Source of the DNA: a virus
Length of the DNA: 11,480 nucleotides
Reading direction: 5' to 3' (one strand)
Virus genome (UHGV): UHGV-0171102
Shown piece by piece: positions 2 to 7,743 of this stretch (position 1 is the first letter of the stretch; the number at the start of each line of letters is the position of its first letter). A model generated the notes under the pieces. That model ran no database searches, had not been told where the DNA came from, and was given only the letters and a program-made list of their open reading frames with translations. Both the position numbers and the translations under genes were made by a program.

Positions 2-427
2 TTACAGGCTGCATTTCCTGCAAGCGTTTCGACCATAAGGGAGCAGAACAAACTTAATGAATTCCGTAAGCAATGGATGCTTGCGTTTCTGGAGAATGGG
101 ATCACTACAATGGAACAGGTTAACGCTGGTATGCGCCACGCCCGCGCCAGTGAGTCTCCGTTCTGGCCGTCGCCAGGGCAATTCATCAAGTGGTGTAAAG
201 ACAGCAAGATGGTTCTTGGCGTCACCATTGACGATGTGATGGCGGAGTTTCACCGGTACAGCAAGGAAAAAAGTTTATATCCTGGTGGTCCCGAAAGATT
301 CCCGTGGCGGCATCCGGTTATGTACTGGGTCGTATGTGATACCCGCCGTGCAATGTATCAGCGCCAGCTTAGCGAGATTGAGGTTGTGAATGACGCGCGG
401 AGGCTGCTCGTTGATTGGGCGAAATAG
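2..427 (+). CDS. P: Replication protein P-like (helicase-loader family), 5'-partial, ending at an in-frame TAG at 425-427
   Basis: Frame 2 is open from the window start. Translation ...FPASVSTIREQNKLNEFRKQWMLAFLENGITTMEQVNAGMRHARASESPFWPSPGQFIKWCKD... closely parallels the lambda P segment as I recall it (FPASLANRDQNEVNEIRRQWVLAFRENGITTMEQVNAGMRVARRQNRPFLPSPGQFVAWCRE). Confidence 0.8.
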   Translation, partial: LQAAFPASVSTIREQNKLNEFRKQWMLAFLENGITTMEQVNAGMRHARASESPFWPSPGQFIKWCKDSKMVLGVTIDDVMAEFHRYSKEKSLYPGGPERFPWRHPVMYWVVCDTRRAMYQRQLSEIEVVNDARRLLVDWAK

Positions 428-643
428 GTGGCTTCCGGACAGCAGATACCCGATCCGGTGATCAGCATACAGGCAAAGCCAGAACCCATGAGTACGCCTC
501 CGGACACAGGGAGAGACGTTTACCACCCGCCAGGGCGAAGTTTCGGGTGCATGCCTAACGCCGCCACCCTGGGGGGAATAACACCGGCGCAGTGGCTGAT
601 GGAGGAATACAGGCGGGGAAAGGCGGCAGGATTTATCAAGTAA
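428..643 (+). CDS. In-frame continuation of the P-like frame after the TAG (likely C-terminal tail of P, or remnant); ends TAA 641-643
   Basis: Same frame as 2..427 and begins at the codon directly after TAG. No Shine-Dalgarno precedes GTG 428. Contains QQIPDPV, resembling the lambda P tail (EAIPEPV) as I recall it. Confidence 0.4.
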   Translation: MASGQQIPDPVISIQAKPEPMSTPPDTGRDVYHPPGRSFGCMPNAATLGGITPAQWLMEEYRRGKAAGFIK

Positions 644-648
644 TACCA

Positions 649-668
649 GCGCGATAGCGCATTTTTTT
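649..668 (+). terminator. Candidate weak intrinsic terminator after the P-like frame
   Basis: GCGC-GATA-GCGC hairpin (649-660) followed by a T7 run (662-668), a few nt after TAA 641-643. The stem is only 4 bp. Confidence 0.3.
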
Positions 669-676
669 ACGTCTCG

Positions 677-760
677 GTAATTACCTTGGAGGTAATAAAA
701 TATTCTAAAATCTATTGATTTCGTGTCTTATGTGGTTTTTAATTACCTAAGGGGTAAATC
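677..760 (+). promoter_or_regulatory. Candidate promoter/operator region upstream of the DUF1064 gene
   Basis: AT-rich intergenic region. TAATTACCT occurs twice (678-686 and 742-750), the first within the perfect palindrome GGTAATTACC (677-686). Possible -35 TTGATT (715-720) and -10 TTTAAT (738-743) with 17 bp spacing. SD AAGGGG at 749-754. Confidence 0.25.
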
Positions 761-1108
761 ATGAGAAAACAGATGCAGGCTCTTGGTCGACTCAAAACAG
801 GCCAGATGAACAAAACAGAATCTGCGTATTGCCAGCACCTTGAGCTGCGTAAACGTGCAGGAGAAATCGTCTGGTATCGATTTGAGGGTATCAAGCTGCG
901 GTTAGCTGACAACACGTTCTATACGCCAGATTTTGCTGTGATGCTCGCCACCGGCGAGATGGAACTGCACGAAGTGAAAGGGGGATTCTGGACCGATGAC
1001 GCCAGAGTGAAAACCAAAGTAGCCGCAGATCAGTATCCGTTCCGAATCATCGGGGTAACGGTTAAACCAAAGAAAGCAGGTGGCGGCTGGAACATCGAAG
1101 AGTTCTGA
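761..1108 (+). CDS. DUF1064-like phage protein with a PD-(D/E)xK nuclease-like motif
   Basis: ATG with SD AAGGGG 6 nt upstream; 115 aa. Motif YTPDFAV...ELHEVKG fits a PD...ExK nuclease signature. Position is typical of the nin region. Confidence 0.85.
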   Translation: MRKQMQALGRLKTGQMNKTESAYCQHLELRKRAGEIVWYRFEGIKLRLADNTFYTPDFAVMLATGEMELHEVKGGFWTDDARVKTKVAADQYPFRIIGVTVKPKKAGGGWNIEEF

Positions 1109-1169
1109 ATCGACGATCTTTTTAGTTATCAATGTAATCAATAAGTTATGTGGATAAGCGAGGGTAAAG

Positions 1170-1673
1170 ATGGAAAGTAATATCAAAGGGTTAGTTGCCG
1201 CCGGGCATGAGATGGCTTCGGAACTGAAAGCAGAATGTGGTGCCGTTGATATGCGCAGTGTGGCAAAGCTGATCAGCGATTTGGCAACGCAACTGGAAGT
1301 GCAACTGGTGCGTGCTAATGCGCTGGCGGCGGAGAATGCGGGGCTGAAGTCTGCACACCCTCAACCATTCGGACCTGAGATGATGAAGGCTCTTGATGCG
1401 TATGAGAAGCATCAGGATGAAGTGCCGGAGACTGGGATGCTTGATGCATTTTTCATCTTGCGCGACAGCATCCGTGTTGAAACCCCAGCCACCGACGCTT
1501 TTCTGGCTGAAGTACGGGCGCAGGGCGTGGAGATGCTGGCAAAAAATCATCAAAGTATCGTCAATGCACTTAAGGGGGATTCTTTATTTTCTGATGGTGA
1601 ATACCGGCATGCAATTATCGCTTCCGCAGCAACATCTTTCGCCGCAGAGCTTCGCAAAGGAGGCAACCAGTGA
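1170..1673 (+). CDS. Hypothetical phage protein (167 aa, predicted helical)
   Basis: ATG preceded by GAGGG. Long ORF in the same orientation as its neighbours; its stop overlaps the next start (GTGA at 1670-1673). Confidence 0.75.
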   Translation: MESNIKGLVAAGHEMASELKAECGAVDMRSVAKLISDLATQLEVQLVRANALAAENAGLKSAHPQPFGPEMMKALDAYEKHQDEVPETGMLDAFFILRDSIRVETPATDAFLAEVRAQGVEMLAKNHQSIVNALKGDSLFSDGEYRHAIIASAATSFAAELRKGGNQ

Positions 1674-1894
1674 GCGGAAAAAGAATGACTAACAGAGAGC
1701 TTGTCGATGCCGCGATTAAGCTTGCTGGTGATTTTTATTCAATGATGGGGTACACGCATCGCCCAGGCTTCAAATATTGGGCGTCTCCTCACCCGCAAGA
1801 GCAACTGGTATTTCAAATGGCCTGCCGTGCTTTTGAGGTTATTCGCGGTTCTGATGTGATGGACGCCGTTGCCGACTTGGAGGATGAAGAGTGA
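1670..1894 (+). CDS. Hypothetical small protein (74 aa, acidic C-terminus)
   Basis: GTG start with a strong SD AAGGAGG (1657-1663) 6 nt upstream; alternative ATG at 1685. Translationally coupled to both neighbours (GTGA overlaps). Confidence 0.7.
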   Translation: MSGKRMTNRELVDAAIKLAGDFYSMMGYTHRPGFKYWASPHPQEQLVFQMACRAFEVIRGSDVMDAVADLEDEE

Positions 1895-2625
1895 GCGAAA
1901 TTAATTATCAGGCACTGCGTGAGGCGGCGGAGAAGGCAACGTGGGGAGACTGGGACTCATATAAACCACACCGTGGCGCACGTGGTTATGAGGTCCGACT
2001 AAGTAGTCAGGCCATTGCGCAACACGTTCTGAAAAACAACGCTGAATTTATTGCTGCCTTTAATCCAAAGATTGCTTTGGCACTACTGGATGAACGGGAA
2101 AGGAACCAGCAATACATCAAATCCCGCGACCAGGAGAACGAGGAAATTGCGCTAACGGTAGGGAAGCTGCGCGTTGAGCTGGAAGCAGAAGAGAAAACAT
2201 CAGCAGCTAGACTTGAGGCGCTCGACCGCACCCACAAAATGTTCCAACGGGAACAATGCAGGGCAGAGGCCGCAGAGAAGCGCATTGCTGAACTGGAGAA
2301 AAGCGAAGAGCAACTCATTAATGAGCGTGACCATGCTGAGTCTGCTTTAGCTGATATGTATTTTGCAGCAACCGGGGATAGGCCTGAGTGGAGTAACTGG
2401 TTCGGTTTTTCAGATGCAGTAGATGCCGTAGTTGACAGAATTGCTGATTTAGAAGCTAAACAGCCATCGCCAGTAGTACCTGAAGGACTGATTAAAGCGG
2501 TGCGTTTTTATGAGCAGGTAAAACGTGAGAACCCGCCAGTCGAAACAGGAGCATGGAAAGACGCTGTTGACTGGGTGCTCAAAGAGGCTTGCCAGGCTGT
2601 AAACATTGGCATCAAAGGAGAGTGA
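1891..2625 (+). CDS. ead/Ea22-like coiled-coil protein (244 aa)
   Basis: GTG start with SD GGAGGA (1879-1884) 6 nt upstream. N-terminus ...YQALREAAEKATWGDWD... resembles ead/Ea22-like prophage proteins as I recall them. The central region is E/K/R-rich and heptad-like. Confidence 0.7.
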   Translation: MSEINYQALREAAEKATWGDWDSYKPHRGARGYEVRLSSQAIAQHVLKNNAEFIAAFNPKIALALLDERERNQQYIKSRDQENEEIALTVGKLRVELEAEEKTSAARLEALDRTHKMFQREQCRAEAAEKRIAELEKSEEQLINERDHAESALADMYFAATGDRPEWSNWFGFSDAVDAVVDRIADLEAKQPSPVVPEGLIKAVRFYEQVKRENPPVETGAWKDAVDWVLKEACQAVNIGIKGE

Positions 2626-2626
2626 G

Positions 2627-2932
2627 ATGATTCACTATCACGGTGGGCCTATTACTCCTGATACGTGCGCCATGAGAGCATGGAAAGGGCGACATGCGTT
2701 TATCAGTTTTGCGCATTCAGGCCAGATCAATCTCGCGGCTGAATACTGTCAGTCGTTCGCGCTGGACAACGGTGCATTCACCGCCTGGAAAGCAGCTGGC
2801 AAAAACAAAATCGACTGGAGCGATTACTACGAGTTTGTTGCTCGCTGGAAGAATCACCCAGGATTCGATTTTGCCATTATCCCTGATGTTATTGATGGCG
2901 GAGAGGAAGAAAATGATGCGCTTCTGAATTAG
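2627..2932 (+). CDS. tRNA-guanine transglycosylase-like (DpdA-family) protein, N-terminal segment, ending at an in-frame TAG at 2930-2932
   Basis: ATG 2627 with SD AAGGAG (2615-2620). Motifs HGGPITPD and LDNGAF resemble the TGT family G-x-V-x-TP and L-x-D-S-G-G-F substrate-binding motifs. The frame continues after TAG. Confidence 0.65.
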   Translation: MIHYHGGPITPDTCAMRAWKGRHAFISFAHSGQINLAAEYCQSFALDNGAFTAWKAAGKNKIDWSDYYEFVARWKNHPGFDFAIIPDVIDGGEEENDALLN

Positions 2933-3382
2933 TGGCCTCACGGAAAACTAGCTGGCGTTCCAGTGTGGCACATGAATGAAAGTGACGAGCGATTTATTCA
3001 TTTGTGCAATGAGTTTCCGCGAGTGGCTATCGGTAGTTGTGGCGACTATGACGTAAAGCGCCCAACTCTTGCGGTAGCCAGAATGAAAGACCTGATTCGT
3101 CACATTGTTGATGAGTATGGTCAGCCGGTTGCGAAACTACATGGATTGCGCATGTTAAATCCGCAGATATTCACAAAATTACCCTTAGCCAGCGCAGATA
3201 GTACGAACGTCGCTCGAAACATCGGTATTGATAAAGCCTGGTCTGGGGCTTATGCACCTGCAAGTAAAGAGACACGAGCAGCATTAATGGTAGAACGGAT
3301 TGAGGCACACAATAGCCCTGGTTCTCTTGCGTATTGTGAACAACGCGACCGCTTTGAAATGCAATTGCAACTAGCAGTTTAA
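2933..3382 (+). CDS. In-frame continuation (C-terminal segment) of the TGT/DpdA-like gene after the TAG; ends TAA
   Basis: Same frame as 2627..2932 with no intervening stop other than TAG. No SD before the internal GTG 2963 or ATG 2972, so independent initiation is unlikely. Confidence 0.55.
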   Translation, partial: WPHGKLAGVPVWHMNESDERFIHLCNEFPRVAIGSCGDYDVKRPTLAVARMKDLIRHIVDEYGQPVAKLHGLRMLNPQIFTKLPLASADSTNVARNIGIDKAWSGAYAPASKETRAALMVERIEAHNSPGSLAYCEQRDRFEMQLQLAV

Positions 3383-3392
3383 GGACTAACAA

Positions 3393-4175
3393 ATGACCAC
3401 TATTACCAAAGAACGTATTGAATTGTTCATTAAAAATCCGCTTGAAAACGGGCTTACTCGTGGCGAACAAATGGAACTGGCACGAATTGCACTGGCATCA
3501 CTGGAACGCGAACTGATTCGCCACGAGCATGCCAAATGGTCTGACTCCACATTTGGCTGCGTTGGCCCCATTGGTCCACTGAAACACCTCTCAAAAGAGG
3601 CTCTGGAAGCCGCAGCCGAACCAGACGATCTCAGCGAGTGGGCTGATATGCATTTCCTGTTGTGGGATGCACAGCGCCGTGCTGGCATCAGCGATGCTGA
3701 AATTACCGCTGCTATGGAAGATAAATTGAAGATCAACATGGAGCGCCAGTGGCCTGAACCAAAAGATGGTGAGCCTCGCTTGCACATTAAAGAACCCGGC
3801 AACTCTCCGGTAATTCCGGATGGTTTATCCACGGTATGCGCTGAGGCTTATCAGGTTGTAGGAGTTATGGCAGATGCGCTTGGTGTATTCGGTGATGCAG
3901 CAGTACAGAAAGTTCTGGATAACCTGTCACAGCAAAAACTTGTTCACAGAGATGTGCTGCCGTTCTCGCTTCCGGTGACTCCGGATGGTTGGATAAGCTG
4001 TAGTGAGCGAATGCCCGCTCAAGATGATTGGATTTTAATTTATTCAAAGCACGGCGAGTATATGGCAGGACAGGTACAAGGGGAATACGTGGAGTTGAGC
4101 GACGGCACTTTATCGTGGTTAGGGAACGCCTTGTACTGGATGCCTCTACCGGAACCGCCGCAGGAGGTGAAGTGA
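3393..4175 (+). CDS. Phage protein with N-terminal MazG-like nucleotide pyrophosphohydrolase-like region (DUF550-like) and C-terminal DUF551-like domain
   Basis: ATG with SD AAGGA 7 nt upstream; 260 aa. Helical segment LSKEALEAAAEPDDLSEWADMHFLLWD...AMEDKLKINMERQW fits the MazG/HisE-like acidic-helix pattern. C-terminal ...DGWISCSERMPAQDDWILIY...WMPLPEPP is typical of DUF551. Confidence 0.8.
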   Translation: MTTITKERIELFIKNPLENGLTRGEQMELARIALASLERELIRHEHAKWSDSTFGCVGPIGPLKHLSKEALEAAAEPDDLSEWADMHFLLWDAQRRAGISDAEITAAMEDKLKINMERQWPEPKDGEPRLHIKEPGNSPVIPDGLSTVCAEAYQVVGVMADALGVFGDAAVQKVLDNLSQQKLVHRDVLPFSLPVTPDGWISCSERMPAQDDWILIYSKHGEYMAGQVQGEYVELSDGTLSWLGNALYWMPLPEPPQEVK

Positions 4176-4297
4176 TGAACAAGTGCAACGCTCTGCTTTA
4201 TGCCATGGTGATTGGTTTCGGCCTGGCTGCTGGTATCCGGGTTTATATTACCTGGGAGTCATTAATCAATCTGGCGTGGAGTGCGATTCGTGGCTAA
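4175..4297 (+). CDS. Candidate small hydrophobic (single-TM) peptide, 40 aa
   Basis: ATG 4175 overlaps the stop of the upstream gene (GTGATGA). Translation MNKCNALLYAMVIGFGLAAGIRVYITWESLINLAWSAIRG is a hydrophobic helix. The longer track ORF 4028..4297 overlaps the upstream gene out of frame. Confidence 0.35.
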   Translation: MNKCNALLYAMVIGFGLAAGIRVYITWESLINLAWSAIRG

Positions 4298-4628
4298 ATC
4301 CCCCGCAGAACGCAAAGCCGCGCAGCGCGCTCGGCAGTCCGCCGCCGGTGAGCGCAAAATTGAACTGGTGCTGGATAAGCAGGAGCAGGAAATGCTGGAG
4401 CGTAACTGTGCCACGCGTCGCCCCGGGCGTGCGCCTTACGAATTTGGTGAGTATATAGCGTTACTGACCCGCCAGGATGATGCACGCGTGCGCGGGCGTA
4501 TAAAATCGATCAGCAGAAAACGTTGCGGTAAGTGCGGCGAGAGAGTTCCAGTTAATTCATGCCCGTGTAATGGTGACTCGCAATGCTGGGTGACCAAAGG
4601 CTGGCATGAAACGAAATTAATAGTGTGA
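4281..4628 (+). CDS. Hypothetical protein with basic N-terminus and Cys-rich C-terminus (possible zinc ribbon)
   Basis: ORF of 115 aa. Start uncertain: GTG 4281 or GTG 4290, the latter with GGAG 8 nt upstream. C-terminal CGKCG...CPCNG cluster. Stop TGA lies inside the 12-bp palindrome. Confidence 0.55.
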   Translation: MRFVAKSPAERKAAQRARQSAAGERKIELVLDKQEQEMLERNCATRRPGRAPYEFGEYIALLTRQDDARVRGRIKSISRKRCGKCGERVPVNSCPCNGDSQCWVTKGWHETKLIV

Positions 4629-4648
4629 CATGTCACGAAGGTGTTATG
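4624..4648. repeat. Copy 1 of a palindromic repeat: TGTGACATGTCACG + GAA + GTGTTAT
   Basis: Perfect 12-bp palindrome GTGACATGTCAC at 4625-4636. The same 14-mer and following GTGTTAT recur at 7075-7095. Confidence 0.6.
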
Positions 4649-4858
4649 CCAAAAATACGCTACGACCTTGAAGATATGAGAGATAACTCAGCAAATTTTC
4701 CGAAAGAGGTTAAATTTCTCATGCATAAGTATGGTTGCGCCAGGAGGGATATAGTTATCGACAGTCAGCACCCTTGCGGCGAGGATGTAATTTTCATTCG
4801 CGGTAAATGGGAAGGGTATCTTGACGAGAGTTTTTACGATGAATTTGATGGACTTTGA
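4625..4858 (+). CDS. Hypothetical small protein (about 70-77 aa)
   Basis: ORF immediately upstream of terS. Start is either GTG 4625 or ATG 4646 (MPKIRYDLEDMRDN...). Contains AGA and tandem AGG AGG codons. Confidence 0.5.
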   Translation: MTCHEGVMPKIRYDLEDMRDNSANFPKEVKFLMHKYGCARRDIVIDSQHPCGEDVIFIRGKWEGYLDESFYDEFDGL

Positions 4859-7666: not shown

Positions 7667-7743
7667 TGGCGTGGCATGCAGGATTCGAACCTGCGACCAA
7701 CCGCTTAGAAGGCGGTTGCTCTGTCCAACTGAGCTAATGCCAC
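7667..7743 (-). tRNA. tRNA-Arg (anticodon UCU), phage-encoded, CCA encoded
   Basis: Reverse complement GTGGCAT-TA-GCTC-AGTTGGACA-GAGC-A-ACCGC-CTTCTAA-GCGGT-TGGTC-GCAGG-TTCGAAT-CCTGC-ATGCCAC-GCCA. Acceptor (7 bp), anticodon and T stems are perfect, with a 4-bp D stem and GTTCGAATC T-loop. Anticodon TCT. Confidence 0.9.

Follow-up and report, generated by a model that had tools for sequence, protein, structure and literature searches.

The two in-frame amber codons in this stretch of DNA, the 11,480-nt window analysed here, are best explained as unrelated events that share one contig: a natural nonsense polymorphism in a TGT-like gene and a base-calling artefact in a lambda-P-like replication gene. 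We assign this reading a probability of roughly 0.78. With one stop a natural variant and the other a probable artefact, no special amber-codon biology would be needed to account for the pair.

Two amber codons in an epsilon15-like prophage contig

The window is a metagenome contig with a coverage of 2.63 (ENA ERZ1304544, NODE_5703_length_11480_cov_2.625888). A search of the literature with the ENA accessions returned nothing. A preliminary description of its sequence had noted that both internal stops are TAG and that none of its genes ends normally in this codon, and both observations are borne out. In an ORF check, the TAG at 425-427 was the only one within the lambda-P-like frame 2..643, read in frame 2, and the TAG at 2930-2932 was likewise the only one within the TGT-like frame 2627..3382. 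Among the remaining gene ends checked there, 17 in all, 11 are TGA, 6 are TAA and none is TAG. No gene of the window besides these two is disrupted, which amounts to two TAGs in about 19 genes. The features that bear on the argument are as follows.

2..643, plus strand: lambda-P-like replication gene (PF06992), C-terminal portion of about 213 codons, with its 5' end outside the window
387..425, plus strand: cluster of six substitutions found only in the NODE_5703 contig, defined by mismatches to assemblies L012 and L014
425..427, plus strand: amber codon in P, AAG (Lys) to TAG, with AAG in every relative
2627..3382, plus strand: gene of 251 codons with a TGT/DpdA/Cap10 fold (phrog_887), interrupted at codon 102
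2930..2932, plus strand: amber codon in the TGT-like gene, GAG (Glu102) to TAG, by a G>T change
7667..7743, minus strand: tRNA-Arg (UCU) detected by ARAGORN, a non-suppressor and the sole tRNA of the window, with an annotated counterpart at the matching position in relatives

The identities proposed earlier for the two interrupted genes were upheld. The first frame matched the Pfam family Phage_lambda_P (PF06992) at E=2.3e-50, scoring 171 bits where the Pfam gathering threshold is 26, and the product of the second is predicted to adopt a TIM-barrel fold whose closest structures belong to the TGT family. Genome-wide recoding of TAG had been considered improbable from the same sequence, and we concur: terL, portal and protease/scaffold are uninterrupted and free of in-frame TAG, and the encoded tRNA carries the anticodon UCU, not CUA.

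The closest relatives of the window are the Escherichia phages phiV10, vB_EcoP_ZX5, TL-2011b and O157 typing phages 9 and 10 (Uetakevirus, epsilon15-like), as well as related E. coli prophages located next to guaA. Across 70-86% of the window these relatives are 97-99% identical to it at the nucleotide level, and the gene order is common to all: DnaT-like, P, DUF1064, Ead/Ea22 region, terS, terL, tRNA-Arg (UCU), portal, protease and major capsid protein. They differ from the window at the two sites in question. Their P gene is uninterrupted, encodes 258-261 amino acids and has AAG at the position of the amber codon, while the TGT-like gene, where present, retains its intact 251 codons with GAG.

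The TGT-like amber allele and its product

The amber codon in the TGT-like gene is a real nonsense allele circulating in natural populations. At least 12 independent samples, isolates or metagenomes, contain it; among the carriers are GCA_030007045.1, ERZ28654762, ERZ19219875, SRR14679030, ERR4560797, ERR11560401, ERR10498899, ERR4034325, ERR4560798, DRR256926 and ERZ1311791. The gene was identical to that of the window in three assembled loci (L011, L012 and L014), and in a fourth (L013) the amber was carried on a recombinant haplotype within a different lambdoid prophage. Carriers were recovered solely through an exact-protein index; the allele was not found in IMG/VR, the JGI metagenomes, GTDB representatives or RefSeq complete E. 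coli genomes. Five further contigs (L016-L020) were rejected as carriers: they have the wild-type G and had matched the 101-aa fragment because they end at that codon. Wild-type relatives have GAG at the site and encode the 251-aa product. In the explanation we favour, this G>T nonsense polymorphism, converting Glu102 to amber, is passed down in a single clonal lineage of phiV10/epsilon15-like (Uetakevirus) E. coli prophages, and recombination has carried it into at least one further lambdoid prophage.

The two ambers are not linked in their distribution: wherever another locus with the TGT-like amber extends over P, P is intact, and across 20 kb of the same prophage (L012) the TGT-like gene is the only one with an in-frame TAG.

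The phrog_887 profile matches the TGT-like protein with E=1e-102, and no sequence match was obtained to Pfam, its TGT family included, to NCBIfam or to the PDB. The structure prediction used a 93%-identical protein (P0001) as a proxy for the read-through sequence. Compared with solved members of the DpdA/TGT superfamily (DpdA, PDB 7ui4; Cap10, 9ntn; ArcTGT, 1iq8; TGT, 3unt), the protein is short (251 aa vs 325-577) and shares 7-14% identity; unlike them, it is encoded in the window's lineage by a gene truncated at codon 102. The D47-N-G-A motif is invariant in the family, as are motifs located downstream of codon 102. Since the amber removes about 60% of the protein and most of these invariant motifs, the gene is most probably a pseudogene in this lineage. 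Inspection by eye revealed no Shine-Dalgarno-like sequence upstream of GTG 2963 or ATG 2972 from which a C-terminal fragment could restart, and the window contains no preQ0-synthesis genes.

The substitution cluster in P

The amber codon in P has a different setting. It is created by the last of six substitutions that lie within 39 nt (387 A>T, 391 A>T, 392 C>G, 400 C>G, 411 A>T and 425 A>T), the final A>T converting AAG (Lys) to TAG. In alignments of the window with L012 (over 11,480 nt) and with L014 (over 4,925 nt), both independent assemblies of this prophage, these six positions were the sole mismatches each time. Four other assemblies of this prophage that cover P (L011/L030, L012, L014/L033 and L034) have AAG and an intact P, and in eight additional loci from other samples the prophage segment has no substitution at all. 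For six differences placed at random over 11,480 nt, the chance of their spanning 39 nt or less would be about 3e-12.

The type of the changes points to their likely origin. In two-colour sequencing chemistry, A is read as red plus green, T as green only, C as red only and G as dark (PMC6129281). Loss of the red signal in two-colour Illumina chemistry would therefore yield exactly A>T and C>G, the pattern seen in six of six changes; the chance of all six falling into one single-channel class is about 4e-5. The cluster resembles known two-colour artefacts such as polyG tails, in that all six private changes fit a missing red signal (PMC6129281), although such artefacts are usually described as runs of G at read ends, and the partial, red-only dropout is one that we infer here. 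Within the 39-nt stretch just 4 of 12 A and 2 of 9 C are altered, so a channel fault would have to have been partial.

Two other sources of the cluster were considered and rejected. An inverted-repeat search of positions 250-600 returned no arm that could template the six changes by template switching at a quasi-palindrome. Nor did any sequence turn up that would support exchange with a divergent allele of P: the exact cluster sequence, searched with N at the amber position, had no match in IMG/VR, the JGI metagenomes, GTDB representatives or 5,426 complete E. coli genomes. Judged from the comparison with other assemblies, the coverage and the substitution type, a sequencing artefact is the most likely origin of the P amber. 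The red channel probably failed in the tail of a read, and the assembler retained that tail at a site with a depth of only about one read, in which case the real phage would have an intact P.

Amber usage and alternative readings

That both interruptions are amber is no more than chance. Of single-base nonsense substitutions placed at random in these coding sequences, 44-50% produce TAG, which gives a probability of about 0.2-0.25 that two of two would be TAG. The absence of TAG from the gene ends of the window is explained by the low usage of this stop in the phage group (~4%) combined with the small number of genes sampled. TAG terminates 2 of 51 genes in ZX5, 1 of 55 in phiV10 and 3 of 50 in the ST95-32 prophage, six of 156 in total, and all six lie outside the map region that matches the window. 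At ~4% usage, the probability of finding no TAG among roughly 18 genes is near 0.5.

The preliminary description had offered three explanations for the pattern: a phage propagated in or adapted to an amber-suppressing host, a laboratory amber mutant, and coincidental nonsense decay. The third came nearest, in that coincidence is involved; the decay it supposed probably does not extend to P, where the amber is better read as a sequencing artefact. A rival reading takes both ambers as real, with the P cluster left by a very recent, localised burst of hypermutation, such as error-prone synthesis during translesion bypass or repair, in one sample's copy of the prophage. Both TAGs are indeed present in the assembled sequence, loss of P would be compatible with a resident prophage, and the NODE_5703 contig is reported in 2 samples; were these independent read sets and not a duplicate deposit, the P cluster would be real. 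The prophage would then be replication-defective on top of an inherited TGT-like pseudogene, a case of ordinary prophage decay. Against this, the window shows zero differences elsewhere from independent assemblies of a lineage that is clonal across many samples, no other gene in it is disrupted, and its coverage is just 2.6x. Six transversions of complementary type within 39 nt, with zero transitions, would also be an unusual spontaneous spectrum. We regard hypermutation of this kind as unlikely, at somewhat less than one chance in five. As a broader alternative, there is only a slim chance either that the TGT-like amber persists because the gene is still useful, through low-level read-through at the tolerant residue 102 or through a host suppressor, as a dosage-tuned DNA-modification enzyme, or that the P cluster is genuine hypermutation.

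Adaptation to an amber-suppressing host, with both genes expressed by read-through of TAG, could draw on the identity of the two interruptions and on the lack of TAG stops in the window. Position 102 of the TGT-like protein is moreover variable in the family and should accept whatever residue is inserted there, which means that a suppressed product would probably be functional. Yet the two ambers co-occur in no other carrier, two of two TAGs has a chance probability of about 0.2, and ARAGORN detected tRNA-Arg (UCU) alone, and no tRNA with the anticodon CUA, in the window and in L011/L012, a scan reaching 20 kb of this prophage. Ordinary genes such as the Rz-like gene end in TAG in the relatives, where the ST95-32 prophage was used to cover the lysis end, and we infer the same for the window's phage; this too speaks against the idea. 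The TAG-T context, as at 2930-2933, is a strong termination context in E. coli and counts in the same direction, leaving suppression very improbable. Still less credible is a laboratory amber derivative or a phage with genome-wide TAG recoding, which the provenance of the contig and the distribution of the alleles refute. An amber inside a replication gene of the P family does recall conditional-lethal mutants such as the classical lambda Pam3 and Pam80. Unlike these, the amber in the window is a transversion within a six-substitution cluster on a 2.6x metagenome contig, lacks laboratory provenance and is missing from every other copy of the same prophage. The TGT-like amber, for its part, occurs in wild E. 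coli isolates and many unrelated metagenomes. Both AAG>TAG and GAG>TAG are transversions, unlike the transitions that give rise to classical hydroxylamine ambers, and the clean frames of terL, portal, protease and the other genes, together with the lack of a suppressor tRNA in the scanned sequence, argue against recoding.

On the preferred reading, the suggestive pattern of two ambers resolves into an ordinary nonsense polymorphism and a probable low-coverage base-calling artefact, and its value is mainly cautionary. Private substitution clusters in metagenome contigs below about 3x coverage should not be taken as biology, and comparison of independent assemblies of the same element quickly reveals those that are artefactual. 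The biological interest is modest: a successful prophage lineage of E. coli appears able to do without a short, unmodelled gene with a TGT/DpdA fold.

Provenance and gene map of the window

The window is identical to a metagenome contig, NODE_5703_length_11480_cov_2.625888 (ENA ERZ1304544), which has a k-mer coverage of 2.6. Megablast placed it among the phiV10/epsilon15-like temperate podophages (genus Uetakevirus) and related guaA-adjacent E. coli prophages, with 97-99% nucleotide identity over 70-86% of its length. At seven comparison loci (L024-L029 and L040), such prophages are integrated directly beside guaA with the integrase at the guaA end. The genes of the window run in the following order:

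2-643, frame 2: C-terminal two-thirds of P, the lambda-P-like replication gene (Pfam PF06992, E=2.3e-50)
next: DUF1064 gene, two small ORFs and an Ead/Ea22 gene
2627-3382: 251-codon TGT-like gene
next: DUF550/DUF551 gene
next: terS and terL
minus strand: Gp49-like gene and tRNA-Arg(UCU), the latter at 7667-7743
last: portal and protease genes, then the beginning of the major capsid gene

The tRNA lies between terL and portal, opposite in strand to the structural genes, and its position is conserved in relatives. Mosaicism is strong from Ead/Ea22 to DUF551 (about 1100-4800), where whole genes are swapped among relatives and the TGT-like gene itself is present or absent.

Amber codons and chance expectation

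The preliminary description had noted two in-frame TAG codons and no TAG serving as a normal stop. Both observations are borne out: the P frame is open except at 425-427, the TGT-like frame is open except at 2930-2932, and TGA or TAA stands at each of the 17 further gene ends examined. Relatives do use TAG, in 2 of 51 genes in ZX5, 1 of 55 in phiV10 and 3 of 50 in the closely related ST95-32 prophage; the genes concerned (an Rz-like DUF2514 gene, a DUF919 virion protein gene, a phosphatase gene and one hypothetical) all lie outside the map section covered by the window. At about 4% usage, the probability of zero TAG in roughly 18 genes is near 0.5. We also enumerated all stop-creating single-base substitutions across the window's coding sequences. 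Because TAG makes up 44-50% of these, depending on transition/transversion weighting, two amber codons in two nonsense events are expected with p of about 0.2-0.25. The pattern does not exceed chance, and the proposed amber specificity is not a real feature.

A natural nonsense allele in the TGT-like gene

The 251-aa TGT-like protein has a predicted TGT/DpdA/Cap10-like fold, yet no Pfam or NCBIfam model. It has more than 7,800 homologues; among the matches listed, nearly all measure about 250 aa, and the listed sequences belong to prophages of Enterobacterales, Vibrio, Aeromonas and Shewanella. The surroundings of the gene contain no preQ0-pathway genes. In wild-type relatives codon 102 is GAG (Glu102) and the protein is intact at 251 aa; the window carries G>T at 2930. 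Residue 102 itself is variable, but the stop precedes W103, P104 and most invariant motifs, so the truncated product should, judging from family conservation, be inactive. No ribosome-binding site for restart was seen after the stop, and the amber-carrying gene is most likely a pseudogene.

The same split gene, annotated as two products (101 and 136 aa), occurs on no fewer than 20 contigs, of which four exceed 1 Mb. TAG was confirmed in E. coli isolate GCA_030007045.1 and in loci from ERZ28654762, ERZ19219875, SRR14679030, ERR4560797, ERR11560401, ERR10498899, ERR4034325, ERR4560798, DRR256926 and ERZ1311791. In L013, a locus within a different lambdoid prophage, the haplotype is recombinant upstream of the stop and has T2930 and A3165 in common with the window; the allele is thus old enough to have been transferred by recombination. 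It is rare, being carried by 0 of 165 complete E. coli genomes matching this gene stretch and not found in IMG/VR, JGI metagenomes or GTDB representatives. The TGT-like amber is a real, inherited natural allele, and as a nonsense polymorphism of an accessory gene it is ordinary.

Two assembly features were seen at related loci. Five independent assemblies (L016-L020) have contigs ending exactly at the base matching 2930, all with wild-type G, which probably reflects selection by exact-product look-up or a common assembly-graph break where prophage modules diverge. The ERR4560797 locus differs from L012, another assembly of the window's prophage, solely by four single-A deletions (equivalents of window 1541, 2614, 3593 and 5362). 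As a result, Ead/Ea22 runs on into the N-terminal TGT-like fragment, and both the DUF551 gene and terS are broken in two. The deletions resemble homopolymer sequencing errors rather than decay.

A private substitution cluster in P

The codon at 425-427 is AAG (Lys) in every relative. Two independent assemblies of the same prophage, L012 (aligned over all 11,480 nt) and L014 (4,925 nt), disagree with the window at six sites, identical in both, and nowhere else:

387 A>T
391 A>T
392 C>G
400 C>G
411 A>T
425 A>T, creating the P amber

Other samples with this prophage are free of substitutions over 1-7 kb, and P is intact (258-261 aa) in all of them that cover it. The cluster allele, whichever base was set at the amber position, had no match in IMG/VR, JGI metagenomes or GTDB representative genomes, and complete E. 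coli genomes match the stretch at 93.4% at best. The P amber is private to the window contig, within an anomalous cluster: six random differences over 11,480 nt would span 39 nt or less with a chance of about 3e-12, and all six would fall in one complementary-transversion class with a chance of about 4e-5. No quasi-palindrome accounts for the changes. Cluster aside, the window's segment of this prophage recurs without a single substitution, over 1-11 kb, in assemblies from at least nine unrelated samples and studies (L012, L014, L033-L039). Such clonality suggests recent spread of an E. coli lineage or of the prophage.

In Illumina two-colour chemistry, A is read as red plus green, T as green only, C as red only and G as dark (PMC6129281). 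Loss of red signal thus converts A to T and C to G, exactly the observed set; on the opposite strand, spurious red signal would give T to A and G to C. At 2.6x coverage this stretch could plausibly derive from a single read, whose errors would then be carried into the consensus, and we infer such a step. Alternatively, though less probably, the cluster could be real; P would then have been inactivated, in one population, by a local burst of mutation that happened very recently. The main caveat to an artefact is that an index lists the contig in "2 samples", which we take to be a duplicate deposit. Most likely, the P amber is absent from the actual phage.

The two ambers are unlinked. Adaptation to an amber-suppressing host is unsupported: no CUA tRNA was found in the window or in 20 kb of the same prophage, relatives use TAG as a normal stop, and no other carrier has both ambers. 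A laboratory amber mutant is excluded by the metagenomic provenance of the contig and by the TGT-like amber in natural samples, and genome-wide TAG recoding, already judged unlikely, by the open essential genes. Coincidental nonsense decay, the remaining proposal, comes closest. Should the P cluster nevertheless be real, it would still represent ordinary prophage decay.
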